This document shows positions 6,115 to 39,174 of a DNA stretch of 64,000 nt, one piece after another; within the stretch, counting starts at the first letter, position 1, and every line of letters starts with the position of its first letter. The position numbers and the translations under genes were made by a program. Origin of the DNA: Bacteroidales bacterium (lineage in GTDB: Bacteria; Bacteroidota; Bacteroidia; Bacteroidales; UBA1556). The notes beneath the pieces were generated by a model. That model did no database searches. It was not told where the DNA came from and saw only the letters and a list, made by a program, of their open reading frames with translations. The stretch lies in assembly GCA_015493685.1 (NCBI GenBank), contig WGCS01000034.1, positions 5,042 to 69,041 of the forward strand. Direction: 5' to 3'.

Positions 6115-6690
6115 ATGAAAAAGAAAACATCGGTGGCTATACTTATAGTCCTCTCTATATTGTTTGGAACAATAATTTATTCCTATCTAAGGTATATTCT
6201 ATTTGGCAAGTTTAATACTGATAATAATGTTGTGTTTATTTTAAACAAAACGTTTATCTTTTCAGCGGTACTACTTATTCCTTTTATGATTCAAACCAAG
6301 TATAAACTGTATCGTTATTTGGTTGATATTCTGGTAGTACTACATATTGGCATTAGCCTATATTCTTTGTCTCCGGGTTTTTATCCTCAATTTTTCGACT
6401 CCGATAATATGCTTAATGTCTGGGGGATTTCCGTGGTGAGTTTTGGTAGTATCGCAGGCCTTTTCTTTTTTAATGCTATCGCCAAACAATTTATTGAAAT
6501 ATCGAAACGGTGGAATTCTGTCTTTTTCTTGCTATTTGTTATTGCCCATAATGTGGCGCTTGACTATTCCGGTTGGTTTAATTTTGACCATTGGTATGGC
6601 GGTCTCCCTCCAATAAGTTTACTGACAAGTATTGTCTTAGTTTATTCCTTGGTACTCGTTTTAATACAGCCGTTGAGGAAAAAGAGTTGA
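6115..6690 (+). CDS. Hypothetical integral membrane protein
   Basis: 191 aa with about 5 hydrophobic segments. No recognisable motif. Confidence 0.5.
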   Translation: MKKKTSVAILIVLSILFGTIIYSYLRYILFGKFNTDNNVVFILNKTFIFSAVLLIPFMIQTKYKLYRYLVDILVVLHIGISLYSLSPGFYPQFFDSDNMLNVWGISVVSFGSIAGLFFFNAIAKQFIEISKRWNSVFFLLFVIAHNVALDYSGWFNFDHWYGGLPPISLLTSIVLVYSLVLVLIQPLRKKS

Positions 6691-6840: not shown

Positions 6841-7926
6841 CTAAGCTTTTTTTAATAATATAAGAGCAAAGTCTTTTTCAGAAAGGTAGGCTTGTTGAAA
6901 AAGGAGAACGTACTCAATATCATTTAGCTTAATGCTTTGTTTAGTATACCAAATATTCTCATCGATTTTTTTTGAGCTAAGAATTTGATTTGCCATCCAA
7001 AAACCAAAGGCAGAAGCACTGGGATGTTCTCCCACATAGTGTTTGTAGAAAGCAATAGGCGTGTTTTTAAAATGATTTTGTAAGAATTTTTGCTGCGGTT
7101 TGTCGTAGCTTTCTACTCCATTAAAGCCGGCAATTAGTAAATTAATTTGCGAACGACTGATGTTGTTTTGTAGAAGAAAATCCAATAAAATTTCATCAAG
7201 GGATTCAAAAGAGGTATGGATGACTTTTACATCAAGTAGTTGTGCATACGAATGCTCTGTACGTTGACTCGATAAGATAAAGAAGCTTGAACTTTCTCCC
7301 ATAATTGCACCCTGAATATAATTGTTCTCTTTTATTGCAAATGGATTTAGAGCTTCTTTTGTCCATAAATCTCCTTGTGATTTATGTTCGAAGGTTTCTT
7401 CTGTTATTTCATCAATCCCCCCAACGAGAATAGTTTTTGCTTTGTCTTCTGCAAATAGCATTATAGCATCAATAAGGCTTATTTCAAAAGCAGCGCCATG
7501 ATGAGTGTAGGTAGTATTATATTGTTTGTTTTTGAGCATTAGTGCTATGCTTCCGGCGACAATATTATTGGTAGATTGCACAAAAGAAGTGGGAATTAGC
7601 ATTCTTTCTTTATTATCAATAATACTATTTAAAAATTTTTGTGTATCACTTATATTTCCGTTTCCGGTGCCAACAATTATTGCGTCAATGGAGTTGCTAT
7701 TGGCATCTTCTATCGCTTTCTGTGCGCCAATAAGGCCAAGTTTCATTTGCTTTGCCATACGGCGCAATTGCTTTGCCGGAATATAATCTCTGTATTTTGG
7801 TGCAATAATCTGGAAATATTTCCGTGGTATAAGCTCTACTGTGCTATCAAAAAACAGATTATTGAAACTCGCTTGTGGTGATATGCTATGGATGCCATTT
7901 ACGTAAATAGGTTTATTCATTATCAC
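6841..7926 (-). CDS. Beta-ketoacyl synthase-like protein lacking the active-site Cys (chain-length-factor type)
   Basis: 361 aa, thiolase-fold-like. The position of the KS nucleophile reads STNNIVAGSIAL, with no Cys. It overlaps the stop of the upstream KS gene, which suggests translational coupling. Confidence 0.7.
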   Translation of the reverse strand: MIMNKPIYVNGIHSISPQASFNNLFFDSTVELIPRKYFQIIAPKYRDYIPAKQLRRMAKQMKLGLIGAQKAIEDANSNSIDAIIVGTGNGNISDTQKFLNSIIDNKERMLIPTSFVQSTNNIVAGSIALMLKNKQYNTTYTHHGAAFEISLIDAIMLFAEDKAKTILVGGIDEITEETFEHKSQGDLWTKEALNPFAIKENNYIQGAIMGESSSFFILSSQRTEHSYAQLLDVKVIHTSFESLDEILLDFLLQNNISRSQINLLIAGFNGVESYDKPQQKFLQNHFKNTPIAFYKHYVGEHPSASAFGFWMANQILSSKKIDENIWYTKQSIKLNDIEYVLLFQQAYLSEKDFALILLKKA

Positions 7927-9118
7927 CTCCTTTATTTACTTTGCCAAAAACGATACTGGTATTGTTGCCTCCAAATCCAAAAGCATTGCTTAGGACATAG
8001 GATAGATTAATATTTCTTTTCACTTTGAGTATTGGTATCAATTGTTCATCCATGGCTTCCTTGAAGTTGAGATTGGGAAACAGAAAAGAATATTTCATAG
8101 CCAAAATAGCATATATGGCATTAAGTGCTCCTGCAGCTCCTAAAGTATGTCCTACATAAGATTTTGAGGAGGCAAAAGGAGGAATATTAGTCTTAAAAAT
8201 ACGTTTTAAGGCTTCTCCTTCTGAAGTGTCATTATTGGGTGTTGCTGTTCCATGGGCATGGACGAAAGAAATTTGTTCCGGCATTAGTGCTGCTTCTTTC
8301 AATGCTTGTTTTATTGTAGCATAAGCTCCTTCGCCATCGGGCGATGAGGCAGAGGAATGGAAGGCGTCATTGCGGTTGGCATAACCCAATACTTCTGCGT
8401 ATATATCTTTCTTTCCCAAAACATCCTCTGATTCTAGCACCAGAAAAGCGCCTCCTTCCCCTAAATTTAGACCCTGATGCCGAGCATCGAAAGGTTTACA
8501 ATTTTCCTCGTCATAAATCATTAAACTGGCAAAGCCATTTAAAGAGAATTTGGTTAAAGGATCGCTGCCTCCTACTAATACGCGCTTTGCTCTTCCGTTT
8601 TTGATAAGTCGCGTTCCAAGAATAATAGCGTTGGCTGAGGATGAGCAGGCTGTATTAATGGTGGAAGTATAAGCGGAGGTGTGAAGGTAGTCGGCAAGTT
8701 GGCGTGTGGTTTCGCCTCCCGGATGAGCTTGATTAAAATAGTATGGGTCTGTAGTTTGATAATCACGGTAATTGGCTTCCGTAATATCTATTCCTCCTAC
8801 GGTATTTCCACCCACGATGGCCATATCTTTCTGATCTTCAATGCTAAGTTTTGCCTCAGCAATGGCTTCGTTGGCAGCAATTATGGTGAGTAGTTGTCCC
8901 CTTGTATATCGAGTTCCTTGATTGAAATTGGGAATTAAATTGAGAAGCTGAGTATTTGTTAAATCAATCTCTGCTGCGGGCCATTTTCCACGATGAATAG
9001 TGCTGAGCCCGCTAATGGGTTTAATGCCTGTTCTACCTTGCTGTAAGGCCTTGAGGTTTTCGTTCACATTGACTCCTATGGATGATATTACGCCCATTCC
9101 CGTTACGAAAACTCTCAT
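7913..9118 (-). CDS. Beta-ketoacyl-ACP synthase (FabF/FabB-like, Cys-His-His type)
   Basis: 401 aa. Active-site NTACSSSANAI. His motifs HAHGTATPNND and SYVGHTLGAAG. C-terminal NAFGFGGNNTS. Confidence 0.9.
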   Translation of the reverse strand: MRVFVTGMGVISSIGVNVNENLKALQQGRTGIKPISGLSTIHRGKWPAAEIDLTNTQLLNLIPNFNQGTRYTRGQLLTIIAANEAIAEAKLSIEDQKDMAIVGGNTVGGIDITEANYRDYQTTDPYYFNQAHPGGETTRQLADYLHTSAYTSTINTACSSSANAIILGTRLIKNGRAKRVLVGGSDPLTKFSLNGFASLMIYDEENCKPFDARHQGLNLGEGGAFLVLESEDVLGKKDIYAEVLGYANRNDAFHSSASSPDGEGAYATIKQALKEAALMPEQISFVHAHGTATPNNDTSEGEALKRIFKTNIPPFASSKSYVGHTLGAAGALNAIYAILAMKYSFLFPNLNFKEAMDEQLIPILKVKRNINLSYVLSNAFGFGGNNTSIVFGKVNKGGDNE

Positions 9119-9139
9119 AGCTATGCCTTGTTCTGTTAT

Positions 9140-9397
9140 TTATGCTGCTTTATTGGCTCTAATGTAATCAGCCATCGACTTAATAGAAAATAAGATGTCT
9201 TTTCCTTTTCTTGAATCTCCTACTTTGATTCCATATTCTTTTTCTAGCAATACTATCAATTCTAAGGCATCTATGGAGTCTAGTCCTAAACCTTCGTTAA
9301 ATAGTGGATCTTCAATATTGATATCATCGGGCTCAATATCTTCCATATTTAGTTGCTCAATAATTTGTAATTTTAATTCTTCTTCCAATCGATTCAT
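9140..9397 (-). CDS. Acyl carrier protein
   Basis: GLDSIDALELIVLLE phosphopantetheine-attachment motif. Start set at MNRLEE (9397), immediately after the permease stop, rather than the overlapping track start at 9421. Confidence 0.85.
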   Translation of the reverse strand: MNRLEEELKLQIIEQLNMEDIEPDDINIEDPLFNEGLGLDSIDALELIVLLEKEYGIKVGDSRKGKDILFSIKSMADYIRANKAA

Positions 9398-9398
9398 T

Positions 9399-10676
9399 CT
9401 ACGTGTTTTTACGTTTACCATAAATTACAGCTATGCCTAAATTAAGCATAAAAAATAATCCTAATTTTAATATAATTCCTCCCAATTGATTTATCGTATC
9501 TGCCTTTAATACAATATCATAATAGCCCTGTAAGGACCAATTTAGAGGAGACCACTGGGCTATTTTAAGCAAGGAATCAGGCATCATATATGTCGGCACC
9601 CAAATTCCTCCAATGGCAGCCAGCAAAACTACTGAAATACTTCCAAATACCGAAGCTTGATGATGAGTTTTTGCAATATTGCCTACGGCGATGCCAAAAG
9701 CTGCTGCAGCTAAGCCGATAAATAATGTTAAAATAAGGAAACTTATGTAGTTACCATGGATATCAAAGGCTTGCATTCCCATTAATGGCAACAAATATTT
9801 ACCTATTAATAAGAGTGTAATAGCTTGGATAACAGCTAAAAGCGAGTATATACAAATTCTAGCTATTAAAGGAATAGAGTAGGGTGTGGGTGATATCTTA
9901 AGCCGCATGAGACTTCCTTCTTCTCTTTCGGTGATAATTTGTGTTGCCAAAGGGATTACCATAAAAAATATGGCAAAAACGGTCCAAGCAGGTACATTAT
10001 GTTGTGTTGAGGAGGGGATTTTTAGACTTTTATCGCCTAAATCTTCAGATTCACTCAGACTAAATCTATCAAGGGGAAATTTTCCTATATTGGATTTTCC
10101 TGTGATCTTTTGCAGTGTAGTTGTATAGCTTTTAAAAACAATAATTGTGCGTATGTTGGCCATTAATTGTTCCAAGGATGAATGAAGTGCTTTGCGAAGA
10201 CTCCCTTTTATTATGGGGTCGAAAAATAGTTGTATATCTACCATCGGAAGTAGCGAGTCGGGTATTATTTGTGTCCCTATAGTTGGGAGTTGCTTTCTGA
10301 CTTCGTTACTTATTATACGCCGGGTATAAATGCTGCTCTTGGGAGGAATAAGTATTCCCACTTGAAAATTACCCTTGGCAACTGCTTTCTGTGCTAGTGC
10401 TAGTGTTAAACTGTCGCCATGATATTGTTGGTGGATATGAAAAATTTTCATTTTTTTAAGTCCTTTGAGAATAGATTTGCCCACAATACCATTATCAAGA
10501 TTAACCACAGCTATATCCAGTTGTTCAACTTGTAATTTTTTTATGGTTTTATCCTGGAGTAGCGTCATTAATACTACCAAGACTATGGGCATTATAAATA
10601 AGAAACTTAAGCCCGCTTTGTCTCGTAGCAAAAGAAGAACCTCTTTTTTTATATTTCCAAAGAATGCAATCATCAA
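9399..10676 (-). CDS. ABC-2 type transporter permease
   Basis: 425 aa. One N-terminal TM segment, a large extracytoplasmic loop, then 5 C-terminal TM segments. A 4-bp overlap with the upstream ATPase gene. Confidence 0.8.
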   Translation of the reverse strand: MMIAFFGNIKKEVLLLLRDKAGLSFLFIMPIVLVVLMTLLQDKTIKKLQVEQLDIAVVNLDNGIVGKSILKGLKKMKIFHIHQQYHGDSLTLALAQKAVAKGNFQVGILIPPKSSIYTRRIISNEVRKQLPTIGTQIIPDSLLPMVDIQLFFDPIIKGSLRKALHSSLEQLMANIRTIIVFKSYTTTLQKITGKSNIGKFPLDRFSLSESEDLGDKSLKIPSSTQHNVPAWTVFAIFFMVIPLATQIITEREEGSLMRLKISPTPYSIPLIARICIYSLLAVIQAITLLLIGKYLLPLMGMQAFDIHGNYISFLILTLFIGLAAAAFGIAVGNIAKTHHQASVFGSISVVLLAAIGGIWVPTYMMPDSLLKIAQWSPLNWSLQGYYDIVLKADTINQLGGIILKLGLFFMLNLGIAVIYGKRKNT

Positions 10677-11410
10677 TCTCTCAACTCCTTTCCTGTTAAT
10701 TGAATAAACACATCTTCCAAATTTATTGCCTCCGGACTATGCTTAATGAGTTCTCCCGGACTTGCCGTAACAATAATTTTACCTTGATCCATAATGGCTA
10801 CCCTATGACAGATATTTTGTGCCTCTTCCAGCATGTGCGAGGTATAGAGCATACTTACTCCTTCTTTATTCAACTCAATTAAATAGTGCTGTATTGCCTG
10901 TTTGCTCTGAATATCAATACCTACTGTTGGCTCGTCCATAATCAGCAATTCGGGCTGTTGAATTAATCCTGCAATAAGATTTATTCGTCTTTTCATTCCA
11001 CCGGAAAATTCACTTATCAATTTATTTCGCTGCTTATACAGGCCGAGGGATTGCAATAAATGGTTTATGCGAAGTTTTCTTTCTTTTCTTTTTATTTGAT
11101 ATTGGGTGGCAATAAAATTTAGGTTTTCATAAGCGCTAAGTTTGGGATATAGTGCAATATCTTGTGGTACAAGGCCAATTTTATAACTCAATAACTTATG
11201 ATTAATAATCTTTTTTTCCTCCCAGAATAAGTCACCGCTATTGGCTGTTAGAAGTCCTGCAATAATATTTATAAGGCTCGATTTGCCGGCACCATTGGGC
11301 CCCAATAAGCCAACAATCTCTCCTTTTTCAATGCCTATACTTACGTGGTCTAAGGCTTTGGTGTTGGTCGATTTATATTCTTTTACAATATCTTTAGCTT
11401 CCAAAAGCAT
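10673..11410 (-). CDS. ABC transporter ATP-binding protein
   Basis: Walker A GPNGAGKSS, signature FSGGMKRR, Walker B LLIMDEPT and H-loop YTSHML. Confidence 0.95.
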   Translation of the reverse strand: MLLEAKDIVKEYKSTNTKALDHVSIGIEKGEIVGLLGPNGAGKSSLINIIAGLLTANSGDLFWEEKKIINHKLLSYKIGLVPQDIALYPKLSAYENLNFIATQYQIKRKERKLRINHLLQSLGLYKQRNKLISEFSGGMKRRINLIAGLIQQPELLIMDEPTVGIDIQSKQAIQHYLIELNKEGVSMLYTSHMLEEAQNICHRVAIMDQGKIIVTASPGELIKHSPEAINLEDVFIQLTGKELRD

Positions 11411-11412
11411 GC

Positions 11413-12426
11413 TTATAGTTTTAATTGATAGAGTTTTGTAAAGAAATCTTTTTCTCTTAATGCAATTTCTTTTAACTCTTCGGAAATGGAGTGGTATGAT
11501 TCTCCATTCGAAGTCCTGTTTTTAACTACTCTACCGGCATTCACGGCAAAAGTACGCCATAAATCTCCAATCTCAGTCATTTCGTTACTTAAGGTCGCCA
11601 ATTTATCAGAGTGTAATAGTTTTGATGATTCTTGTAAGAAAGCGGCATATAAAAAACGGAATCCTGCTCCACCGGTACCTATTTCTTCTTGCATACGAAT
11701 TACAGAGCCCAAGTATCGGGATGCTTTTTTCGCATCATATTTTTGAGGCCATTTTTCAATACCTTTTGCCAATAAGCGGATTCCCCGGTAGCCAATTACA
11801 GGCCCGGGAGCTTTAACCATCATCATGGCTGTATATTTTATGGATTTCTTAATGGCTTGGGGCAAATTGTAATCCTGAGAGACACTCTCTATAGAGTACA
11901 TTTTTCCTTTGGGTTTATAAGTTCCTTTGGCATAGCGTACTCTCTTCAGGTCCTCTTCTGACAGCCATTCAGGATTTTCCATTATTGGGTCCGAGATAAG
12001 ATATTGGCCGTTCTTTTTTCCATAAGCTACAATGTTATGCGCATTAAAATGAAATCGTAATGGAGCAGGAAAATAGCTTAAATGATATACGCCTACAACC
12101 ATGCCTACAGGAGTCTTTTGTGTCAGTAGGCTGTCAAGTGCTTGCATGGCTTTTTGTGGTGAAGACCGGAAACTGGAAACTTTCATCTTTATTCCCAGCA
12201 CTTTATTGATGCGATGAAAAATTCTTCCCGGCATAGGCCGGAAGGAGCTTACAGGGGCGCCATTTAATTTTAAAAATGGCAGGTAGGTGAAAAATAATCC
12301 TGAACCAAGGCCAAAAATCATCGGCTCGCTTAGTTCTATACCATAATATCGTAATAAATTTGACGTTACTCCATTCTCGCAATGTGCCGCCATTGAGTGT
12401 TTAAAATCTATAGTCTCTATCTCCAT
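11413..12426 (-). CDS. BtrH N-terminal domain-like protein (papain/C39-like fold, putative ACP-dependent acyltransferase)
   Basis: 337 aa. N-terminal HSMAAHCENGVTSNLLRYYG with the candidate nucleophile Cys typical of the BtrH_N family. Embedded in the lipid cluster. Confidence 0.55.
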   Translation of the reverse strand: MEIETIDFKHSMAAHCENGVTSNLLRYYGIELSEPMIFGLGSGLFFTYLPFLKLNGAPVSSFRPMPGRIFHRINKVLGIKMKVSSFRSSPQKAMQALDSLLTQKTPVGMVVGVYHLSYFPAPLRFHFNAHNIVAYGKKNGQYLISDPIMENPEWLSEEDLKRVRYAKGTYKPKGKMYSIESVSQDYNLPQAIKKSIKYTAMMMVKAPGPVIGYRGIRLLAKGIEKWPQKYDAKKASRYLGSVIRMQEEIGTGGAGFRFLYAAFLQESSKLLHSDKLATLSNEMTEIGDLWRTFAVNAGRVVKNRTSNGESYHSISEELKEIALREKDFFTKLYQLKL

Positions 12427-12830
12427 TTACTCGCTTCAAAACTTAATAAATCATTACTATCTATACTGAGAACCTTGGCATACTCTTGTAGTATCTTGGA
12501 ATTTATTTCTGGAAAATTCTTCCCTTTAAGATGCTTCTTTACTCTCCATCGTGGAAGGTTCATATATTCTGCCAATATTTTTACATCCATCATCTCTTTA
12601 CACATGAAAAAATAAATTGGACTTTTATCACCGTGAATTACTTCTTCAAGAGCCGATGCCGTACGTTCTTTTACTTCGTCCCATGCTTGTGCCAATGCTA
12701 TATTCTGTGGCTCAAAGCCGGGACTTTTTTCTTGTACATAATTGCCCTCTTTATCCACTGCATATTGGATAAAACTGGTTTTTCCTTCCAAAGCATTGGC
12801 ATCGTCTTTGGGCATATCTTCAACTTTCAT
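12417..12830 (-). CDS. Hypothetical protein with a possible C-terminal HTH-like segment
   Basis: 137 aa with no recognised family. MDVKILAEYMNLPRWRVKKHLKG looks helix-turn-helix-like. A 10-bp overlap with the downstream BtrH-like gene. Confidence 0.45.
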   Translation of the reverse strand: MKVEDMPKDDANALEGKTSFIQYAVDKEGNYVQEKSPGFEPQNIALAQAWDEVKERTASALEEVIHGDKSPIYFFMCKEMMDVKILAEYMNLPRWRVKKHLKGKNFPEINSKILQEYAKVLSIDSNDLLSFEASKWR

Positions 12831-12868
12831 AATCTCTTCTCCGACTAAGGTTATTGTAATAAAATCAC

Positions 12869-14005
12869 CTATACTACGGTCATTTTTATATAAGTATAGG
12901 AAAAACGAGCACTCTCAGGACTCATTACTAATATTTGGTTGCCTTTCTTTAATAGTCCCGAATTAAAAAGCTCTTCCATCATCAGGTAGGCCGATGCGGC
13001 TCCAACATTGCCAAACTTACTTAGATTAGTAAACCATTTCTTTTGTGGTAACGGACAGCCGGCTTTTTCGGCTTCTTCTTCTATTTTGTATCTGAAATAT
13101 TCGGATGACATATGAGGGAGGAAATAATCAATTTCATCGGTGGTAAAATTGTATTTGTCACAAACTCTCTTTATCCCTTTTGCTCCTGTTTCTACAATAT
13201 TACCGCCCAATAATTTGGTGTCTTGACGGATTGATAAAATTGATTTTGCTATTAATTCTTCTTGCGAATAGGCTCGCCATGGGATAAGTTGTCCATCGTC
13301 GGTACGTTCACCTCCGGCATACATACAAGTAGGCAACTCATTGGAGTAACTTAAGATATCAATAAAGTCGATACGGTAAGACAGCCCTTCAGTATTGGGT
13401 TTGTCCTCTAAAAGGGCTACAGCGGCGCCGTCACTTAACATCCAGCGTAGAAATTCACGCTCAAATTGAATGGTGGGCTGCTTTTTTAGTAAGAGTAGCT
13501 TCTCTGCTTCTTCTTCAAAATTAGAGGCTTGTAGCCATGTGGATAATAATTCAGAACCGCCTGCAATAGCATTTCGGCTGTTGCTGGTTTGTATCGACAT
13601 ATAGGCGTATTTCAAAGCTAACATTCCTGAGTTGCATGAGCCTTCGGGACTAATTACTTCCATGGGCCTGTTTTTTAATAATCCTTGTACCATGGAAGCA
13701 TGCGAGGGTAGTAGCTGGTCGGGAGATGTTGTGCCCACTGCCAGCAACTCCAGCATATTTAAATCAAAACCATTTTTCTCAATTTTTTTAATGGCTTCAA
13801 AAACAAGTTCCGAATTGGTATGTGTGTAGTTACCTTCTTTGTCTAAAGCATAATATCGTGTCTTAATTCCATTGTTTCGTAAAATAATGCCTTTGGCTCT
13901 TGACTTAGTCCCTTTTATATAACCTAAATAGTCTTCCATTTCATCAGATTGGATGGCTTTGTTTGGAAGAAACCGACTCATTTTATTGATATATACTATA
14001 TTCAT
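12869..14005 (-). CDS. darB: KAS III-like condensing enzyme, DarB type (dialkylresorcinol biosynthesis)
   Basis: 378 aa. FabH-like triad context PEGSCNSGMLALKYA (Cys), FLPHMSSEY (His) and FGNVGAASAYL (Asn). Immediately downstream of a DarA-like gene. Confidence 0.75.
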   Translation of the reverse strand: MNIVYINKMSRFLPNKAIQSDEMEDYLGYIKGTKSRAKGIILRNNGIKTRYYALDKEGNYTHTNSELVFEAIKKIEKNGFDLNMLELLAVGTTSPDQLLPSHASMVQGLLKNRPMEVISPEGSCNSGMLALKYAYMSIQTSNSRNAIAGGSELLSTWLQASNFEEEAEKLLLLKKQPTIQFEREFLRWMLSDGAAVALLEDKPNTEGLSYRIDFIDILSYSNELPTCMYAGGERTDDGQLIPWRAYSQEELIAKSILSIRQDTKLLGGNIVETGAKGIKRVCDKYNFTTDEIDYFLPHMSSEYFRYKIEEEAEKAGCPLPQKKWFTNLSKFGNVGAASAYLMMEELFNSGLLKKGNQILVMSPESARFSYTYIKMTVV

Positions 14006-14050
14006 TTTGTTTATTTTATTATTGTGTTATTGTTGTTATCTATAGTAAAT

Positions 14051-14962
14051 TTATTTTCGCTGCATTAGAAGAATCCGATTCATGCCTTTTTTGGTAAGGG
14101 GATAAAAAACAATGCCTGCCAGACTGAAAATAGAAGATGATATTGGACTAATAAAGAAAATAAGGAAGAGTAAGTAGTATTCATAAATTTTTAACCGGAC
14201 TTTTCTGTCCGGATTTCCAGGGCCTCCCTTTTTCCGGATAAAAGCTGCCCATAACTTAAAAATCCTTCCTGCAGCCATTTCGGTAGTCTTTATTGAAAAT
14301 TTAAGGCTTACTCCTTTGTTTTTTACTACTCCTTCTTGAAATCCGGACCAGTTATTAGTACTAAGAGAAAGCTCCATAAGCTCCCCAAATTTAGTGAGTG
14401 TTTCCAACTTCTGCTTTGTTATGCCATAGGGAGGAAGGTTTTTATAAGGTTTTTTCTTCCCTGTAGTTAAAAATTTCAATACGGTTATTACGCTGATAAT
14501 ATTGGAATTAGGATCGGCAAAAACCAAATTTCCCACATGATTTACCTTGTTTGCTTTAAAATAATTAAGGAGTCGTTTTTGTGCATTTACCCACATATTA
14601 CGTATGCCAAGAATGGTGATAACGTTGTTGTGATTAAGCAGTGCTTTCAATTTTTTGTCCTGGAGCATACTCCAAAATGGAATTGATAATGAAAGAAACC
14701 ATACTTGATATGCTAAGATTATTAAATCGTAATCGCCTTGTTTATCGAAAGCTTTTACAGGAATGGTAATGCCTTCAACAGATTCGGGCATGCAATCGTA
14801 AAAAGTGTCATTTGTCCAAGGAAACGGAAAGTCATCAATAGGTTCTATCTTAAAGTAGTCAATAGTGTAAGTGTTATTTTGAGATAATGGACTTAATATC
14901 TTATCGACAATTGTCTTTAACTGACCCGATTGGGTGTAATAAACAACTAATATTTTCTTCAT
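14051..14962 (-). CDS. darA: DarA-type protein (flavodoxin-like N-terminus, C-terminal membrane anchor)
   Basis: 303 aa. MKKILVVYYTQSGQLKTIVDKIL flavodoxin-like start typical of DarA. Hydrophobic C-terminal segment YYLLFLIFFISPISSSIFSLAGIVFY. Paired with darB. Confidence 0.7.
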   Translation of the reverse strand: MKKILVVYYTQSGQLKTIVDKILSPLSQNNTYTIDYFKIEPIDDFPFPWTNDTFYDCMPESVEGITIPVKAFDKQGDYDLIILAYQVWFLSLSIPFWSMLQDKKLKALLNHNNVITILGIRNMWVNAQKRLLNYFKANKVNHVGNLVFADPNSNIISVITVLKFLTTGKKKPYKNLPPYGITKQKLETLTKFGELMELSLSTNNWSGFQEGVVKNKGVSLKFSIKTTEMAAGRIFKLWAAFIRKKGGPGNPDRKVRLKIYEYYLLFLIFFISPISSSIFSLAGIVFYPLTKKGMNRILLMQRK

Positions 14963-15031: not shown

Positions 15032-15039
15032 CAAAGATA
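15032..15039 (-). promoter_or_regulatory. Candidate -7 box (TAtcTTTG on the minus strand) for the dar operon
   Basis: Plus-strand CAAAGATA, about 70 bp upstream of the darA ATG. No convincing -33 TTTG. Confidence 0.25.
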
Positions 15040-15644
15040 CATAATTTAATTCACGAAATATCATTAATGTGTCTTCAAAGTAATATATTATCGTTTGGAT
15101 AATGAGGCTGATGCATAAGGTAATATTTTGCCTAAATTCAAGGTGGCAGTATTTTGCTGTATGGCATTTTACTGGTATTATCAGTAGTGTACAGTATTAA
15201 TACAAAGAGGTAAATCATTATCAATTAATCTTGCTTATAGTATAAAAAATTGAATTATTGCGGATTAATTAATCCAATTTAACCATTAAGTAGCTCCTAA
15301 ATTCTTTATCTTTTTCAATTTACGATAAACCCCACATTACGTATGAGCCTTTGATACCCAACCTACTTGTTCCTATTCAATCAATATTTTCTTTATAAAT
15401 ACACCCTTTTCTGTTCTCATTCCTAATAAATAGTATATCATTGGTTGGATTTGGAAATATTGATATCATATTACTAACGGGTTCAGTAATCCTTACAGGA
15501 GTTTACTCCTCTACTATAATGGATAAATTGTATTGTTTTCTAGTAATTGCACTTAGAGCAAGCAACGCTGGCATAGCAATCTTACATCTATGTGTCCTAA
15601 TAGTTATCCCGCTCGTATAAATTATAGCATTCTGTAGTGTGGCT

Positions 15645-18600
15645 TTAATTTCTGTATAGACTTACCGTTCCTTTGAGGTAGATGCTGGGATTTTTATCTA
15701 TTTCTCCAAATACAGTATAGTTAATCTCCCAAAAATAAACTCCTTCTGTTGCTTTTTCACCATTGATGCTTCCATCCCAAGGTTTATCCAAATTAGTGCT
15801 ATGATAAACAAGCATCCCCCAGCGATTATATATTCGAATCTCAAAAGTTTCAATATTTTGATATTCTATTTCAAATACATCATTATAACCATCCCCATTT
15901 GGAGTAAATACATTGGGGACTTTGAATTTAGACTTGCAGTTGAGTATATGAGTAGTGTCATAGGCATAGCAATTTCTTTCCTTTACTCTAACCCAATAGA
16001 TTCCAGGCCTGTAAACGGTAATACTGCTGCCCGTTGCATTGGTATTCCATCGATAAGCTTCATAACCACTTCCTGCATTTAGCAAGACGTTTCCTCCAAT
16101 ACAGATGGTGGTGTCAGGATGAAGTGTGACAAGTGGAGGCAGGTCTTGCCTGACTGTTATGGTGTCTTTTGCCGACCAACAATTAGAGCTGTCTTTGACT
16201 TGTACAATAAATATATTGGGCAGATTTACCCATCGCTGTGACAAATTGTAGTGGTCGTTCCAACGATAAGCTAAATAATTTCCCAAATTAATTTTTACAC
16301 TGTCGCCAATGCAAAATGCGGTATCTTTAAAAGCGATAATAATTGGGGGCGGTTGGCTTATGCTTATGGTGTCTTGGATTTGACATAATCCACTGTCGGC
16401 ACTTACGGTAAGGGTGTAGTTTCCGGCGGCTAAATTAGTAATAACTTGTCCTGTTTGTTGATTTGACCATTGGTAAATATAGGAGTAAATAGTGTCAGTA
16501 TTTATTATTTGAATGCTTCCGTTACTGTCGTTAAAGCATTGGTTGTCAGTAATAAGATAATTTAAATTGATGTTGCATCCCACATAAAGAGAGTCGTAAA
16601 CAGTACAATTGCCGGCATAGTCCACGGTAATATAATACCAGCCTGTTTGGTTTACCGAAATATCGGCTGATGTACTTCCTGTAGACCAATGATAACTGGT
16701 GTTGGGACCTCCATTAAAATTAACACTGCTAAGAATAATATTTCCTCCTAAACTTAGGTTTGTGTCAGGGCCCAGTCCGTAAACATATTGTGGCCCATTG
16801 GAGAATATCCAAGCCGAATTATTGGAAATGTCACTGCTAAATGCACCGGCATAATAGTTGGCTCCTCCCAAAGCATGAATATCGCGCATATTGATAAAAT
16901 CACCATTTACATTACCTGCCGCTTTGCTAACATAAGCTTGATTCCCTCTCGAAGTAGATTGTAATGTAAGGGCAAAGCAGTTGTTTCCTCGTACCTGCCA
17001 AAATGATCCTACCGTTTGAGTTTTAGCTTCTTCAAGCTGATAAGTATTGCCGGCCTGAAATAGAAGACTATCGAAATAATGTTCTCCATAGATATCAGCA
17101 TTATTGTTAATCTGTACTTTATTGAATGTATCGTGCGAGCTGTTTTCATTAATGATCTTGCTTAATCCTTTTCGTATTGGTTTGAAATCAACATTATTAA
17201 AATGAAGTATTTTTGTTCCTTTTAAATGGAGTTCCAGTTGGGGATTATTACTATATTCATTGAATATTATTTGAGAATTATTGGCCATTAAATTGATGCT
17301 ATCGCTATTGATAGAAAACGTATGTTTCAAGTGAAAAATAGAGTTTCTAAGGTCTAATTTTCTTGGTGTATTATTGGGAGATAAGTAGTCATAGGCAAAA
17401 ATAGTGTTATTATTAAGTATGAAATTTCCCTTATTATGAAAAATAGTATTGCAGTGTAAATCATCAAAAAGCTTCCAGCTGCCTTTTCTTTGAAAATAAA
17501 TCATGTTGGTGTACTGTTGTGAGGAACGGATATAGTTTCCTGTGTCGAGCGCCATAAAATGGAACTGTACGTCGGAGCGTAAGGTCATTGTGTCACCCAA
17601 ATAAAGTGAGCCATATATATTAAGTTTATAAATATTCATATAAGGATTGCTGGGGGTGAAATCCCAATACATAGTATGACATTCGATGGGTAAATTTGAT
17701 ATGGCGCTTCCTGCTACAGGAAAGGACTGTTGTGTAAAATGTACATCATCAACAGAAGTTGGAATGCATTCTCCGCTTATGCCCCCGTCGGTGAGTGACC
17801 AATGGGCTGTATCCCACCATTCACCTGTGGTATCAACCCAATAGAGTGTCCGTGCAGTAGGAGGTGTAATTTGCCAATTGGAAGAATTGCCTCCAAGGTC
17901 GAATCCATTAACAATGGTAAAGCTGCCATTACCAATGCCAATGATATTTTGTAAATAAACGCTGGATAAATTTACATTGCCATTGAGCTTATGTACATTT
18001 GTTGCTGAGCCATATCCTTGTATTTTTATGGTGCCATAACAATCGGCATTAGCTTGCCAGTCGTAGTTAATATATTGGTTGCTATTGCTCTGTAATGAGT
18101 ATGTTCCTCCTTTGGAAAATATCAATGTGTCCATATAATTATTCGCATTGAGATCGCCATCACCGCTAAAGAACAAAGTGTTAAAACGATTACTAAGGTT
18201 GTGGTCGTGCTTTATAATACCTTGTCGGCTAGAATCCAAGAAATTGACGTTATAAAAAACGGCTTGATTGCTTCCTTTAGTTTTAAGTTTGCCTCCGTGA
18301 ATAAAGTTCAGGCTTGAGTTGGCTGCTAGTAAGTGGGTGTTGTTGTTGCTTCGCCAATAGAAGATTCTATTTATTCCTCCGTCAATGATATTAATTTCTC
18401 CATTATGAAAGTCGAGGGTCTTTTTCTTGTCAATGTCGGCTAAATACGACTGAGCAAAAATGGGCTCTTGGTTGCAAATAAGTTTACCGGCATGGTGATA
18501 TATTTTTTCTCTAACATAGAGGGTGTCAAGTAAAGACCATTGTCCGGTATCACAAAATACTATTTCTCCATCATAAATTTGTCCGGCCATATCAATGCTT

Positions 18601-21083
18601 TTATTCAACTGGTCGTTGATATAAAAGGTTTTGGCTTTCATCTGAAAATCCATATTGTTAATTAGCTTAATGCTTCCTGAGATATAATGCGAATATTGGA
18701 TGGAGTCAAATATAAATAATGGATATTGTGTGCTTCCTGTCCAATCCATATTATGACAAAAAATATCGTTATATTGTATTAATACAGAGTCGTTGGAGTT
18801 ATTAAAAGAATTGGCATCGAAATATACATTGTCAAGGATTTTAGGAATGCATGCACCCGAGCTACCCCCACTACTATAGGACCAATGTGTGCTGTCTTGC
18901 CAGTTGCCGTTTCCATTTACCCAGTAGTGATCTTGGGCGTTATTATTAAATGTCCAGCCTGAATTCTCTCCTAAATCACTGCTGTTGTTGGCAATAAAAC
19001 TGGCGCCACCAACAGCATTGCTTCCACGTAAACTAACATTATTGGCTACGATGGTGGCAGAGGCAGGAAGGCTTAAGATGAAATAACTAATGCCGGTAGA
19101 TTCCAATAAATTAATGGTTTTAGTACAGCTGCCATCAGCAAGAAGAGCTTTGTTTATGGTGTCTGTTCTAGCGAAGAAAGTAAAGCTGTGGCCAGCCTTA
19201 AAGTAGGAGGTGTCGGAAATAGCAATTCCGGAGAGAGAAACATCCGCAAGATAATTGATCCTATTAAAGAAAGTTGATGCACAAATAAAACTTGATAGAT
19301 TAGCGCTTTCGTTGAAAGTAAGATTGTATAATGAATCAGGTAAGTTTCCGGAGCTTTCAAAATGGCTTCCGTTATTGAGCATGTGAATATGTGAAGTGCC
19401 CGGGTGTATGATTAAACTGTCCTGTTGGATATTACAACCCAGTTGAATATCAATAACGGAAGAGGAAAGATCTAATATTTTTGTGAAAGAAGAGTTTATT
19501 TGTAAACTATTACAATTGATATAATTGCCATCAGTGATAAGATGTCCTTTTGAAAATTTTATTCTTTTATTAGGATTTATTAAGCTATCGGTGAGCACCC
19601 AGCTTCCCAAGCCAATAAATTCTATATTGTGTTTTAAATTGATATTGGAAGTATGAATTGTTTCGCCTGTGTTATCCGAAACGAAAAAGATAGTGCTTGT
19701 ATTTTGCATCTGTAGCGAGTTTCCTAAATAAAGCGAACCGGAGATATGAATATCTTTATTGAAGTCCCATGTTCCGGCAACGTTATCGTGCCATAGAATG
19801 TTATGACATTCGGCGGGGATATTTCCTGAAATTATTAAACTTAAGTTAGTGGTGGAATTGCTGTCAATAATTACATTATCAACAAGAGTAGGGATGCATT
19901 CGCCTCCTGCTCCTCCGGAGATTGAAGCCCAATGGAGAGTGTCGTCCCAATCACCATTTCCATCAACCCAATATAGAGTTCTTGCATTTGGAGGTAACAA
20001 ATTCCAGCCTGTATTATCACCTAAATCGTCGGTAGCCATTGCATTGAAGACAGCACCTCCTGTGGCATGAATATGTTTAAGAATAAGATAGTTGCAATTT
20101 ATTACACCGCTGACTTTATTTATGCTTGCAAAACTTCCGCCACCCTGAATACTTAGTTTATTGTTGCAGCTCCCATTGGCAATAAATGCGTGTTGTATAG
20201 TTTGAGTAGTATTAACAGCTAGGGTATATTGCTGCCCTTTGCTAAATAGTAAACTGTCATAAGTATTGTTGCCATTGATAATTCCGCCGCCACTAAAAAT
20301 AACTTTATGGAAATTAATGGGGACAGATGGATTTGAAAGTTCACCTATTGCTCCTGTAAAATACACATTGTTATAAGTAAGGCTATTGTTAGTTGTGTGG
20401 TTGAAACTTTGGTTGCTAATGCTTATATTGGAATTAGTGGCATTGACATGAAACCCATTGCCATTAACAGTCCAATTGCCAATTTGTAAGCTGGAATTTG
20501 TAATAATTAGGTTTCTGTTGAGTGATGAATTGGAAGTAAAACTATTCCCTTGAATGCTTTTCCCATTGCTATTAAAAGTGCCATTTTCAAAGGATATACT
20601 ATTGAAATAAAGACTACTACTGAGAATCCAACTTCCGCCGCCTTTAAAAAACAGGGGCGACGAAAAATTCAGCCCATGGGGTTTTATCTCTGAAATACCG
20701 GCGGGGGCTTCAAAATAGAGTTTAGCTGTTGGTAAAGAAAGAAGGTTGCTTAATTTAAAATCACCATAGATTTTCCATATTTGACAGCTTCCGATAAAGT
20801 CAAGGTTAGAAGTAATGAGCTCTACATCAAAATTTTTACAGAATAATGTACTGATATTGAGATTGATAACAGCGCTATTATTCATCGAATTAGTATCAAA
20901 AATTACATTGTCAGCTGCTGTAGGCGTTTGAATATGGTGCGTAGTTCCTCCTGAACTTGTAGCCCAATGGTTAATATCGGACCAATTTCCGGAACCACCA
21001 ACCCAATAATAATCAGAGGTATATCCTGCTATCGAAAAGACTAAGAATACACAAGTTATTGCCAATTTTTGTATGAAAAGCAT
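15645..21083 (-). CDS. Giant modular cell-surface protein with a T9SS type B (gliding-motility CHU_C) C-terminal sorting domain
   Basis: 1812 aa with a signal peptide. Four ~350-aa modules are followed by a SprB-like repeat (CFNDSNGSIQI...YQWSNQQTG...GNYTLTVSADSGLC) and two Cys-containing Ig-like repeats (CIGDSVKINLGNYLAYRWN / CIGGNVLLNAGSGYEAYRWN). The C-terminus is VPNVFTPNGDGYNDVFEI...GVYFWEINY. Confidence 0.9.
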   Translation of the reverse strand: MLFIQKLAITCVFLVFSIAGYTSDYYWVGGSGNWSDINHWATSSGGTTHHIQTPTAADNVIFDTNSMNNSAVINLNISTLFCKNFDVELITSNLDFIGSCQIWKIYGDFKLSNLLSLPTAKLYFEAPAGISEIKPHGLNFSSPLFFKGGGSWILSSSLYFNSISFENGTFNSNGKSIQGNSFTSNSSLNRNLIITNSSLQIGNWTVNGNGFHVNATNSNISISNQSFNHTTNNSLTYNNVYFTGAIGELSNPSVPINFHKVIFSGGGIINGNNTYDSLLFSKGQQYTLAVNTTQTIQHAFIANGSCNNKLSIQGGGSFASINKVSGVINCNYLILKHIHATGGAVFNAMATDDLGDNTGWNLLPPNARTLYWVDGNGDWDDTLHWASISGGAGGECIPTLVDNVIIDSNSTTNLSLIISGNIPAECHNILWHDNVAGTWDFNKDIHISGSLYLGNSLQMQNTSTIFFVSDNTGETIHTSNINLKHNIEFIGLGSWVLTDSLINPNKRIKFSKGHLITDGNYINCNSLQINSSFTKILDLSSSVIDIQLGCNIQQDSLIIHPGTSHIHMLNNGSHFESSGNLPDSLYNLTFNESANLSSFICASTFFNRINYLADVSLSGIAISDTSYFKAGHSFTFFARTDTINKALLADGSCTKTINLLESTGISYFILSLPASATIVANNVSLRGSNAVGGASFIANNSSDLGENSGWTFNNNAQDHYWVNGNGNWQDSTHWSYSSGGSSGACIPKILDNVYFDANSFNNSNDSVLIQYNDIFCHNMDWTGSTQYPLFIFDSIQYSHYISGSIKLINNMDFQMKAKTFYINDQLNKSIDMAGQIYDGEIVFCDTGQWSLLDTLYVREKIYHHAGKLICNQEPIFAQSYLADIDKKKTLDFHNGEINIIDGGINRIFYWRSNNNTHLLAANSSLNFIHGGKLKTKGSNQAVFYNVNFLDSSRQGIIKHDHNLSNRFNTLFFSGDGDLNANNYMDTLIFSKGGTYSLQSNSNQYINYDWQANADCYGTIKIQGYGSATNVHKLNGNVNLSSVYLQNIIGIGNGSFTIVNGFDLGGNSSNWQITPPTARTLYWVDTTGEWWDTAHWSLTDGGISGECIPTSVDDVHFTQQSFPVAGSAISNLPIECHTMYWDFTPSNPYMNIYKLNIYGSLYLGDTMTLRSDVQFHFMALDTGNYIRSSQQYTNMIYFQRKGSWKLFDDLHCNTIFHNKGNFILNNNTIFAYDYLSPNNTPRKLDLRNSIFHLKHTFSINSDSINLMANNSQIIFNEYSNNPQLELHLKGTKILHFNNVDFKPIRKGLSKIINENSSHDTFNKVQINNNADIYGEHYFDSLLFQAGNTYQLEEAKTQTVGSFWQVRGNNCFALTLQSTSRGNQAYVSKAAGNVNGDFINMRDIHALGGANYYAGAFSSDISNNSAWIFSNGPQYVYGLGPDTNLSLGGNIILSSVNFNGGPNTSYHWSTGSTSADISVNQTGWYYITVDYAGNCTVYDSLYVGCNINLNYLITDNQCFNDSNGSIQIINTDTIYSYIYQWSNQQTGQVITNLAAGNYTLTVSADSGLCQIQDTISISQPPPIIIAFKDTAFCIGDSVKINLGNYLAYRWNDHYNLSQRWVNLPNIFIVQVKDSSNCWSAKDTITVRQDLPPLVTLHPDTTICIGGNVLLNAGSGYEAYRWNTNATGSSITVYRPGIYWVRVKERNCYAYDTTHILNCKSKFKVPNVFTPNGDGYNDVFEIEYQNIETFEIRIYNRWGMLVYHSTNLDKPWDGSINGEKATEGVYFWEINYTVFGEIDKNPSIYLKGTVSLYRN
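15648..15926 (-). other. T9SS type B sorting domain (aa 1720-1812)
   Basis: KVPNVFTPNGDGYNDVFEIEY...IYNRWGMLVY...WDG...GVYFWEINY. Confidence 0.85.
16794..17843 (-). repeat. Protein-level module 4 (aa 1081-1430)
   Basis: Starts YWVDTTGEWWDTAHWSLTDGGISGECIPTSVDDVHF and ends GGANYYAGAFSSDISNNSAWIFSNGP. Confidence 0.8.
17844..18926 (-). repeat. Protein-level module 3 (aa 720-1080)
   Basis: Starts YWVNGNGNWQDSTHWSYSSGGSSGACIPKILDNVYFD and ends GNGSFTIVNGFDLGGNSSNWQITPP. Confidence 0.8.
18927..19973 (-). repeat. Protein-level module 2 (aa 371-719)
   Basis: Starts YWVDGNGDWDDTLHWASISGGAGGECIPTLVDNVIID and ends GGASFIANNSSDLGENSGWTFNN. Confidence 0.8.
19974..21008 (-). repeat. Protein-level module 1 of the giant surface protein (aa 26-370)
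   Basis: Starts YWVGGSGNWSDINHWATSSGG and ends ATGGAVFNAMATDDLGDNTGWNLLPP. Confidence 0.8.
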
Positions 21084-31938: not shown

Positions 31939-33183
31939 ATGAAGATAAAAATTAGTGTATTAGCTTTGCTGTTGGTATTTGTGTTCCAAATTCAATTATC
32001 GGCATGCACAGTAGCTGTTATCTCTGGTAAATATACCAAAGATGGTCGTCCTTTACTGTGGAAGAATAGAGATACTTGGGCTGTTCATAATAAGATTATG
32101 TATTTTGATGATGGGAAGTATGAATATATGGGCTTGGTTAATTCGGGAGATATTCATGGTAAAAGCGTTTGGATAGGTCAGAATAGCGAAGGCTTTGCCA
32201 TTATGAATTCCGCATCGTATAATCTTAATATAGGAGATACAAATAAGCTTAGCGGTCTTGAAGGACATGTTATAAAAGCAGCTTTGGCCAATTGTGCCAC
32301 CATAGCTGATTTTGAGAAAATGATGGATGAGATGAAAAGGCCTACCGGTTTTGAAGCTAATTTTGGGGTGATTGATGCCCAAGGAGGCGCGGCGATGTAT
32401 GAGCTTAATAATAAAGGCTATGTTAAATTTGATGCCAACGATCCTAAAGTGGCCCCCTTTGGTTATATCATTCGTGCCAACTACTCTTTTATGGGCAGTT
32501 TTGGTAAGGAGAGTAGTGGTTATATTCGGTATAATACAGTCAATGAATTATTTTATAATGCAATGAGTACTAATGCCTTCACTGCTCAATTTATTTTGCA
32601 GGATGTGGCGCGTAGTTTAAAACATTCGCTTGTAAAAGAGGACTTGTTTATCAAGTATGCAGATGTGCCTCAAAATACACCTACTTTTGCTTTCTTTCAT
32701 GATTTTGTTCCACGAAAAAGCAGTGCCTCTACTTGTGTTATTCAAGGCGTGAAAAAGGGTGAGAATCCTGAATATAGTACTCTATGGTCTGTTGTGGGCT
32801 TCCCGCTCACTTCAGTGGTTGTCCCTACTTGGATTAAAGGAAAAAATACCTTCCCAGAGGTTCTTAAAAGGAATGATAAGATTAAAGATTCTCCGATTTG
32901 TCATGCTGCATTGACATTGAAGGCTGAAGTTTTTCCCATTCGTTGGGGAAAATTTGCTTCGAAATTCTATATTAATATTAATGCACTTACCAATGAGGAT
33001 GGTACGGGTATCCGTCAAAAAATAAAACCTTACGAGGATAAAATATTTGCTCAGACTAATGCTAAATTAGATGAGTGGAGGACTTCGGGAATGAAAAAAT
33101 CAAGTATAGAGGATTATTATAAACAGTTAAATGCGGAAGTTCAGAAGATGTTCCAAAAAGAGTTTAATATAGTACTGAATTAA
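31939..33183 (+). CDS. Secreted Ntn-hydrolase-like protein (peptidase C69/C45-like)
   Basis: The signal peptide ends ...QIQLSAC and is followed by CTVAVISGKYTKDGRPLLWKNRDT. This resembles the N-terminal-Cys nucleophile block of C69/C45/choloylglycine-type Ntn hydrolases. Confidence 0.5.
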   Translation: MKIKISVLALLLVFVFQIQLSACTVAVISGKYTKDGRPLLWKNRDTWAVHNKIMYFDDGKYEYMGLVNSGDIHGKSVWIGQNSEGFAIMNSASYNLNIGDTNKLSGLEGHVIKAALANCATIADFEKMMDEMKRPTGFEANFGVIDAQGGAAMYELNNKGYVKFDANDPKVAPFGYIIRANYSFMGSFGKESSGYIRYNTVNELFYNAMSTNAFTAQFILQDVARSLKHSLVKEDLFIKYADVPQNTPTFAFFHDFVPRKSSASTCVIQGVKKGENPEYSTLWSVVGFPLTSVVVPTWIKGKNTFPEVLKRNDKIKDSPICHAALTLKAEVFPIRWGKFASKFYININALTNEDGTGIRQKIKPYEDKIFAQTNAKLDEWRTSGMKKSSIEDYYKQLNAEVQKMFQKEFNIVLN

Positions 33184-36557: not shown

Positions 36558-36745
36558 TTGTTTGCAATCTTTGTTTCTATAAATCTATTGTACAAAGATA
36601 TGCAAATGTATTTTGTATTAACATTGATGTCCTATTTAAAATCTAAATTTAATTTAAGAATAGGGAAATGAGTAGAACTTTGCTAAACTAAGATTAAGAA
36701 ATAGAAAATTAGATTAAAAAAAGCTAATGATGAACAAATGTTCAT

Positions 36746-36753
36746 TACTTTTG
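36746..36753 (+). promoter_or_regulatory. Bacteroidetes -7 box TActTTTG
   Basis: Perfect TAnnTTTG, 28 bp upstream of the ATG at 36781. The track start at 36727 lies upstream of this box. Confidence 0.5.
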
Positions 36754-36780
36754 CGGTCTAAAATAATAGATAATAATACT

Positions 36781-37695: not shown

Positions 37696-37714
37696 ACATA
37701 TTAAAATTAGTATT

Positions 37715-38062: not shown

Positions 38063-38086
38063 TAGTATAATAAGACGGTTCTAATA

Positions 38087-38971: not shown

Positions 38972-39006
38972 CGGTATAGATAAGAGATTATTTTAGTGTA
39001 TTTTAT

Positions 39007-39014
39007 TACGTTTG
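39007..39014 (+). promoter_or_regulatory. Possible internal -7 box TAcgTTTG in the gap between the two ATPase genes
   Basis: Perfect TAnnTTTG, 160 bp upstream of the ATG at 39175 and 47 bp upstream of a 30-codon sORF (39061..39153). Confidence 0.3.
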
Positions 39015-39174
39015 TATAAAATTATTGCACCCTTTCAAAGCATAAATAATTTGCTTGATTATGATGGGTATCAAGTTATATAATGGATTGTCTGGGCATT
39101 TATATAAATGGATTAATTATTATGGACAACAAACAGCTAAATTAGCACAATAGATAGATTAACAAGACTCAATA

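Follow-up and report, generated by a model that had tools for sequence, protein, structure and literature searches.

An extended dar gene cluster in an uncultured Bacteroidales genome: probable resorcinol half of a flexirubin-type pigment pathway

Gene content of the cluster

We have analysed a compact cluster of nine dar genes, which are related to those for dialkylresorcinol synthesis, in a 64-kb stretch of DNA from a Bacteroidales bacterium (GenBank assembly GCA_015493685.1, contig WGCS01000034.1, positions 5,042 to 69,041); this whole stretch is referred to here as the window. The nine open reading frames (ORFs) follow one another in the same direction on the minus strand, from position 6841 to position 14962 of the window, and their junctions range from a gap of 45 bp down to an overlap of 23 bp, which is consistent with a single operon. 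A preliminary description of this DNA had recognised a cluster headed by darA and darB with its own ketosynthase (KS), a chain-length-factor-like KS, an acyl carrier protein (ACP) and an ABC-2 exporter, and the identities and coordinates of these genes were confirmed by profile matches, catalytic residues and homology. Every sizeable ORF of the window was run through the profile libraries Pfam or NCBIfam; the names DarG and DarH in NCBIfam follow the nomenclature of Chitinophaga pinensis.

The gene at the head of the operon (14051..14962, minus strand) encodes a protein of 303 aa, and its identification as DarA is supported by homology, synteny and a structural model. The protein is 31-33% identical (E ~1e-41) to the protein encoded directly before DarB in three Pseudomonas darABC loci, 32-67% identical to its counterparts in all other loci of our genome scan, and ~40% identical (E ~1e-65) to NCBI/UniRef entries which carry the name "dialkylresorcinol condensing enzyme DarA". 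No Pfam or NCBIfam model matched it; since DarA of the classic Pseudomonas darA-darB-ACP locus likewise gave zero matches, the two libraries are evidently without a DarA model and the miss is uninformative. An AlphaFold (AF2) model computed from 56 homologues (predicted local distance difference test, pLDDT, 91.5) has the fold of flavin mononucleotide (FMN) proteins of the WrbA/flavodoxin type, followed by long hydrophobic C-terminal helices, with WrbA and FMN flavoproteins as its top hits in the PDB. The modelled fold fits the published role of DarA as an aromatase which oxidises the cyclohexanedione.

DarB (12869..14005, minus strand) is a ketosynthase III of the StlD/DarB family, which reaches 552.3 bits with NF053539 (cut-off 550) and 527.6 bits with NF005293 (cut-off 450), aligns over its full length with StlD (PDB 5GK0, E = 8e-109) and keeps the Cys-His-Asn triad (Cys124, His298 and Asn333). 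The preliminary description had let its naming of DarA and DarB depend on profile thresholds: DarB passes them, and DarA, for which there is no library model to pass, is carried by homology instead. By what is established for the two families, DarB would join a beta-ketoacyl and a 2-enoyl fatty-acyl thioester to give a 2,5-dialkylcyclohexane-1,3-dione, and DarA, as a membrane-associated flavodoxin/WrbA-fold oxidoreductase, would aromatise this dione to the resorcinol. The predicted product is a 2,5-dialkylresorcinol.

DarH (11413..12426, minus strand) reaches 459.5 bits with DarH_acyl NF053550 (cut-off 300), matches BtrH_N and DUF4872 of Pfam, and contains a papain-like set of residues (Cys16, His126/His130 and Asp146) which is invariant in 12 homologues. 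BtrH is an ACP-dependent acyltransferase, and the invariant Cys/His/Asp set together with this family membership makes acyl transfer from an ACP the likely chemistry of DarH; it would move an ACP-bound acyl chain, possibly onto a hydroxyl of the resorcinol. The neighbouring 137-aa protein (12417..12830, minus strand) belongs to the DarG family (NF053536, 133.6 bits with a cut-off of 70). In its AF2 model an N-terminus which is disordered or forms a beta-hairpin is followed by a long helix and a C-terminal helix-turn-helix (HTH) domain of the XRE/Cro type, with pLDDT >90 for residues 50-137. Foldseek matched this model to the HTH domains of XRE, SinR, CylR2 and C-proteins, with 3KXA at the top, and from the modelled fold DarG may be a regulator; a regulating or scaffolding role is conceivable. 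3KXA is the uncharacterised NGO0477 of Neisseria gonorrhoeae, and Neisseria also has dar modules (locus L033 of the genome scan). A shallow sequence profile of DarG compared with the PDB gave no matches and no link to 3KXA. Counterparts of DarG are listed as hypothetical proteins both in C. pinensis (darG; Table 3 of PMC12968099, after Schoener 2014) and in Azoarcus (darD; PMC3949708).

An ABC transporter follows, which is composed of an ATPase (10673..11410, minus strand; PF00005, E = 1.4e-32), syntenic in all extended dar modules, and an ABC-2 type permease (9399..10676, minus strand; PF12698 and PF01061) whose synteny is conserved as well. They correspond to DarI and DarJ of C. pinensis and to DarF and DarI of Azoarcus, and would take the lipid from the inner membrane toward the outer membrane. 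The ACP, DarC (9140..9421, minus strand), matches PF00550 (PP-binding) and NF006617 (84.3 bits, cut-off 70) and carries the phosphopantetheine serine, Ser49, in a GLDS motif. The FabF-like KS (7913..9118, minus strand; PF00109 and PF02801), equivalent to DarD of C. pinensis and DarJ of Azoarcus, has the Cys-His-His triad (Cys158, His289 and His324, invariant in 11 homologues). In the last gene (6841..7926, minus strand; PF13723, Ketoacyl-synt_2), the counterpart of C. pinensis DarE and Azoarcus DarK, all three catalytic positions are replaced, Cys, His and His by Gly, Phe/Leu and Glu, and the product is a catalytically dead, chain-length-factor-like KS partner. The ACP falls into the PRK09184 family and the best match of the KS is PRK09185; both, like the Ketoacyl-synt_2 partner, are of the kind found in aryl-polyene (APE) and flexirubin clusters, and together the three would form a minimal elongation unit of the aryl-polyene type.

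Known dar clusters, relatives and the polyene half

The window has the complete extended dar module, i.e., DarA encoded immediately upstream of a ketosynthase III of the StlD/DarB family, a small DarG-family protein together with a BtrH-related DarH, and an ABC ATPase with its ABC-2 permease, an ACP, an active KS and an inactive KS partner in conserved synteny. The same nine families make up the dar cluster of C. pinensis DSM 2588, given as darA, B, G, H, I, J, C, D and E in Table 3 of PMC12968099 (after Schoener 2014), and the window meets the NCBIfam models for DarB, DarG and DarH. In Azoarcus sp. BH72 (azo0283-0293) the same families stand in the same order, listed as darA, B, D (hypothetical), E (BtrH-like), F (ABC ATPase), I (permease), C (ACP), J (KS) and K (PMC3949708 Table 1), including a KS-like hypothetical protein in last place; unlike the window, Azoarcus has an inserted toxin-antitoxin pair, which in its different naming is called darG and darH. 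The KS, chain-length-factor-like KS, ACP and exporter, to which the preliminary description drew attention, are no peculiarity of the new cluster; by these two tables they belong to the standard accessory set of the dar clusters in C. pinensis and Azoarcus BH72.

Both of these clusters lie apart from the genes for the polyene half of their pigments. In C. pinensis ~5000 genes separate the dar cluster (darA Cpin_6851, darB Cpin_6850) from the flx polyene cluster Cpin_1853-1877 (PMC3992019), and Azoarcus BH72, which makes the pigment arcuflavin, has its two arc polyene loci at sites physically apart from the dar cluster (PMC3949708). The module of the window stands alone like that of C. pinensis, which supplies the resorcinol half of flexirubin; the differences are that a polyene partner is known for C. 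pinensis and that DarB of the window is ~50% identical to its Chitinophagaceae homologues. The Azoarcus polyene is xanthomonadin-like and is primed by XanB2, not by tyrosine ammonia-lyase (TAL) and FlxY. The flexirubin cluster of Flavobacterium johnsoniae UW101 (~37 kb; darB Fjoh_1102) contains dar genes of the same families contiguous with its polyene genes, an arrangement shared by two relatives of the window described below (locus L041 and contig P0201), whereas the module of the window stands alone. In F. johnsoniae one KS/KS-like pair appears to serve both the dar and the polyene roles (PMC12968099 Table 3), and Fjoh_1088 has been mapped in published tables to both FlxN and DarD.

The cluster is also distinct from two simpler or related systems. 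The darABC loci of Pseudomonas (chlororaphis/aurantiaca-type) encode the same ring-forming chemistry, with a DarA 31-33% and a DarB 49-50% identical to those of the window, and the match of DarB to StlD extends the likeness to DarABC/StlD of Photorhabdus. The Pseudomonas loci of our scan (L021-L023) consist of DarA, DarB and an ACP only and are without DarG, DarH, the ABC-2 transporter and the KS pair; the window, with six further conserved genes and no LuxR-solo receptor, is not a minimal darABC locus for a free resorcinol or cyclohexanedione. It shares with the APE type II polyketide synthase clusters an ACP, a KS and a dead Ketoacyl-synt_2 partner of the same kind, but these are the sole APE components in the window, which lacks an ApeI/ApeP dehydratase/thioesterase, a ketoreductase, LolA/MMPL export, a glycosyltransferase and an aryl-activating ligase.

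The distribution of the module was addressed by a genome scan, which identified at least 20 loci, some of them variants, that match the dar gene content and order in Bacteroidota, in a deltaproteobacterial metagenome-assembled genome (MAG) and in Haemophilus. The nine families occur in the same order in loci of Prolixibacteraceae, Flavitalea, other Chitinophagaceae, Ferruginibacter and Chryseolinea, and the deltaproteobacterial MAG has all of them in this order except for the dead KS partner. An identical transporter-ACP-KS order was found in loci L002, L011, L014, L016, L024, L026, L038 and L040; Flavihumibacter and Pinibacter have a divergent ACP-KS-KS block, and Haemophilus and Myxococcota have variant modules. 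Among species-representative genomes the closest is an uncultured Prolixibacteraceae MAG, whose DarB is 84% identical to that of the window. The accessory proteins of L041 are equally distant from those of all other loci but Ferruginibacter L016, and a faster evolution of the accessory genes in the clade of the window, as expected of a functional shift, was rejected on these grounds; the pattern of distances appears to reflect deep divergence and mosaicism.

No polyene genes accompany the cluster. The readable DNA of the source organism amounts to ~74 kb, i.e., the 64-kb window and 10 kb upstream of it, the latter read on scaffold_3 (185 kb) of the ENA metagenome assembly ERZ23495730 (REYS20-1_SAMN12239313). 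Among the sizeable ORFs of the window there is no ammonia-lyase, aryl-CoA ligase, dedicated ketoreductase or dehydratase (FabG/FabZ-type), LolA, MMPL protein or glycosyltransferase, and polyene-half genes are absent from the 10 kb upstream as well; reading on for 10 kb past either end of the window gave nothing of relevance. The local absence of an ammonia-lyase, an aryl-CoA ligase, FabG/FabZ-type genes and a LolA-like gene noted in the preliminary description is thus upheld for this range. A tblastn search of the window with ~30 proteins of polyene clusters from relatives returned KS paralogy and otherwise no homologue, whether of the polyene KS, ketoreductase (KR) and dehydratase (DH), of FlxW (AAT), of the MMPL/acyltransferase/methyltransferase fusion, or of a LolA-like protein or glycosyltransferase. 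The TAL FlxA and the aryl-CoA ligase FlxY, which were not found in the window or the 10 kb upstream, are present in relatives at separate loci. A 414-aa protein (31939-33183, plus strand) with a marginal match to PF03417 (AAT/Ntn-hydrolase) lies directly after a SusC/SusD pair, within a locus which is controlled by an extracytoplasmic function (ECF) sigma factor and FecR and contains a C10 peptidase; it was rejected as an equivalent of FlxW because it sits in this SusC/SusD locus and shows no tblastn similarity to the FlxW of relatives.

Separation of the two halves is common among the relatives. In Ancylomarina sp. YFZ004 the dar module stands alone on a contig of 178 kb, and a separate contig of 463 kb carries a FlxY equivalog (703 bits). 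The complete genome of Labilibaculum euxinus (Marinifilaceae) and a Draconibacterium sp. MAG (Prolixibacteraceae) contain a full polyene set with no dar genes nearby, which comprises a TAL, a short-chain dehydrogenase/reductase (SDR), a KS, an ACP, an LpxL-type acyltransferase, an O-methyltransferase, an ApeP-like thioesterase, FlxY, an AAT, two desaturases and the MMPL fusion. In this part of the tree, separate loci for the dar and polyene halves are thus the normal condition. In Flavihumibacter, too, the dar module stands alone, flanked by the ribosomal-protein operon tuf-nusG-rplKAJL and a ROK gene. The polyene half itself can be fragmented: in the Bacteroidales-like sequences L043/L044 (JGI 3300003311, LKpool_1000018) a biotin-synthesis operon lies between FlxY and the genes for TAL, SDR and KS.

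Contiguous arrangements also occur. In L041 (52% DarA and 76% DarB identity) the module lies inside a flexirubin-type cluster together with FlxY (NF053551, 713 bits with a cut-off of 520), a DarG which passes the flexirubin_DarG model (177 bits, cut-off 170), a polysaccharide deacetylase and a second KS/KS-like pair. Contig P0201, from another relative of the window, has the dar module contiguous with FlxY, a FlxW-type AAT, desaturases and an MMPL/acyltransferase/methyltransferase fusion. When the two KS-like genes of L041 (L041:11817-12857 and L041:13601-14653) were compared with the dead KS of the window, this was found to be slightly nearer to the second, non-operon copy (37%, 221 bits) than to the copy in the dar operon (34%, 189 bits). 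By this measure, and with the double assignment of Fjoh_1088 as FlxN and DarD, the KS pairs for dar and polyene synthesis look like recent paralogues whose division of labour is blurred. A protein-database search with FlxY of L041 gave >8000 matches of which the best 120 all had at least 67% identity, and FlxY is too conserved to single out the copy of one organism.

For DarB a lone homologue was found in Bacteroides muris (L027, NZ_SRYZ01000054.1, 701-1840), which is 44% identical and is without DarA or accessory genes. It lies between two TetR regulators, with genes of the kind found in conjugative elements (topoisomerase, DUF3945 and DUF4099) close by, and may be a mobile orphan cyclohexanedione synthase in a gut Bacteroides. 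This locus was rejected as a source of polyene queries, being a lone DarB homologue between TetR genes and near mobile-element genes.

Possible products of the cluster

We favour, with a probability of about 0.6, the view that the nine genes are a canonical extended dar module which supplies the dialkylresorcinol half of a pigment of the flexirubin type, whose polyene genes lie elsewhere in the genome. The aryl-polyene half (TAL, FlxY, KS/KR/DH, FlxW and the MMPL/acyltransferase/methyltransferase fusion) is most likely encoded at another locus, as it is in C. pinensis, Azoarcus and Ancylomarina. It should be noted that darA and darB alone suffice for dialkylresorcinol formation in E. coli, as reported in PMC3992019 with reference to Fuchs 2013, and that known producers of the free resorcinol do not have the accessory genes; these therefore most likely serve something beyond the free resorcinol, a pigment or lipid stage. 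The preliminary description was sound in its gene identities and in the local absence of polyene genes, but its inference of a free or differently decorated product is not supported, because separation of the two halves is documented in C. pinensis and Azoarcus (PMC3992019, PMC3949708) and was seen here in Flavihumibacter and Ancylomarina. Its proposal of a free resorcinol lipid, exported possibly as a signal or antioxidant, runs into the further difficulty that the known free producers have darA, darB and darC alone, and the accessory genes argue for a pigment-type pathway.

Several observations weigh against the pigment module. The polyene half is absent from the ~74 kb that were read; the two closest relatives on long contigs, L038 and L040 (59-63% DarA and 81-82% DarB identity), have a stand-alone module within the 10 kb around it, and nothing positive ties this clade to a polyene cluster. 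DarG scores 133.6 bits with the flexirubin_DarG equivalog NF053545, below its cut-off of 170. The roles proposed for DarH, DarG, the KS pair and the transporter derive from family membership and synteny, and Schoener reportedly proposed in 2014 that FlxW, not DarH, is the enzyme which links polyene and resorcinol. The DarG score is weak evidence, since the same cut-off is failed by Ancylomarina (161.5), which has FlxY, and also by Flavitalea (153), and is passed by L041 and Flavihumibacter; as the model discriminates so poorly, a sub-threshold score was rejected as a mark of a function other than flexirubin synthesis.

The missing polyene genes, the stand-alone modules of L038 and L040 and the low DarG score would suit a lineage which has lost, or never had, the aryl-polyene half and makes a polyene-independent resorcinol lipid. 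The resorcinol would then be free or acylated by DarH, its chain built by the ACP, KS and KS partner of the module with housekeeping FabG/FabZ, and the ABC-2 transporter would export it as a membrane antioxidant or signal. That the module has its own aryl-polyene-type KS, dead KS and ACP, that the dead KS is slightly nearer to the non-operon copy of L041 (221 vs 189 bits), and that the neighbouring genes are anaerobe-like can be counted in the same direction. We consider such a lipid possible but rather unlikely, because the same stand-alone layout is found where the polyene half does exist elsewhere (C. pinensis, Azoarcus and Ancylomarina; PMC3992019, PMC3949708), relatives at the family level have full polyene clusters, the known free dialkylresorcinol systems are without the six accessory genes, and absence from 74 kb of a multi-megabase genome says little. 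A more specific proposal, which we regard as doubtful, is that an uncultured Bacteroidales clade comprising the window, L002, L038 and L040 has a dar module without any aryl-polyene partner, in which DarH would esterify a chain built by KS, dead KS and ACP with FabG/FabZ to the resorcinol, to give a new non-pigment lipid exported by the ABC-2 transporter to the outer membrane.

A cyclohexanedione or resorcinol signal of the quorum-sensing type, which the ABC transporter would export and a dedicated receptor would sense, as in Photorhabdus, where darABC acts with PauR, appears very improbable. Homologues of DarA and DarB occur in Proteobacteria which produce signals and antibiotics (StlD included) and an exporter is present, but the gene content differs from darABC by six genes and no receptor of the LuxR-solo/PauR type is encoded in the window, where the sole GerE-type regulator (510-1169), a response regulator, is paired with a histidine kinase 13 kb away. 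Furthermore, we know of no such signalling in Bacteroidota.

The pigment module thus remains our preferred interpretation, and the cluster adds an uncultured Bacteroidales genome to those with this well-described biosynthetic module. In several lineages dar and polyene genes are as a rule found at split loci, and a stand-alone resorcinol cluster is therefore no argument against a flexirubin-type pigment. The six accessory genes (DarG, DarH, the ABC-2 pair, the ACP and the KS pair), whose roles have so far been inferred, are conserved from Bacteroidota to Haemophilus and absent from producers of the free resorcinol; should some genome prove to have the module without polyene genes, it would offer a clean system for the roles of these genes.

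Flanking genes and upstream region

The gap 5' of the DarA gene measures 682 bp. A candidate -7 promoter element of the Bacteroidetes type, TATCTTTG (15032..15039, minus strand), lies ~70 nt upstream of the DarA start codon; it was read from the sequence as a motif match to TAnnTTTG, the -7 consensus of Bacteroidetes promoters. Scans for sigma-70 promoters and terminators stayed at background level, and neither Rfam families nor tRNA genes were detected in the window. The same gap contains a 30-codon ORF (15377-15469, minus strand) which begins with MISIFPNPTNDILFIRNE and resembles the start of a C-terminal sorting domain of the type IX secretion system (T9SS). Lying downstream of the 1812-aa T9SS-sorted protein encoded at 15645-21083, this ORF is probably the remnant of a gene.

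The neighbours of the cluster in the window include a two-component system, an ammonium transporter, a GNAT acetyltransferase, a Crp-type regulator, an acyl-ACP thioesterase and a small membrane protein; further genes are those for the T9SS-sorted protein, the ECF sigma/FecR/SusC/SusD locus with its C10 peptidase, and FabD. The acyl-ACP thioesterase (PF01643; 4963-5709, plus strand) and the small membrane protein, a multi-pass protein of 191 aa (6115-6690, plus strand), run convergently toward the end of the dar operon. In L040, too, the membrane protein adjoins the dar module (46% identity). The thioesterase was considered as a tenth gene of the cluster and rejected, since it is not conserved beside dar modules elsewhere.

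The host of the window is probably anaerobic, an uncultured member of the Bacteroidales resembling Prolixibacteraceae. A gene set at 36727-40050 (plus strand), which comprises a protein with DUF134 and an iron-molybdenum (FeMo) cofactor-like domain, a second FeMo-cofactor-like protein and two MinD/ParA-type ATPases with 4Fe-4S ferredoxin inserts, is typical of anaerobes and is worth noting as DarA performs an oxidation. Genes for leucine/isovalerate catabolism occupy 40543-48648 (minus strand) and encode a hydroxymethylglutaryl-CoA (HMG-CoA) lyase, CoA-transferase A/B, an acyl-CoA dehydrogenase, a biotin carboxylase, an enoyl-CoA hydratase and a carboxyltransferase. In L038 the HMG-CoA lyase and CoA-transferase genes (L038:18172-20906) come directly after the dar module and an SDR gene; those of the window do not adjoin the module, which indicates that the window is rearranged and that the SDR neighbour is missing. 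The window agrees exactly with ENA assembly ERZ23495730 and also matches the fragmentary NCBI MAG GCA_027055095.1; it derives from a different, more contiguous assembly of this organism, for scaffold_3 itself ends near 57.8 kb of the window, and the last ~6 kb are found on scaffold_374 and, in the NCBI MAG, on an 8-kb contig.

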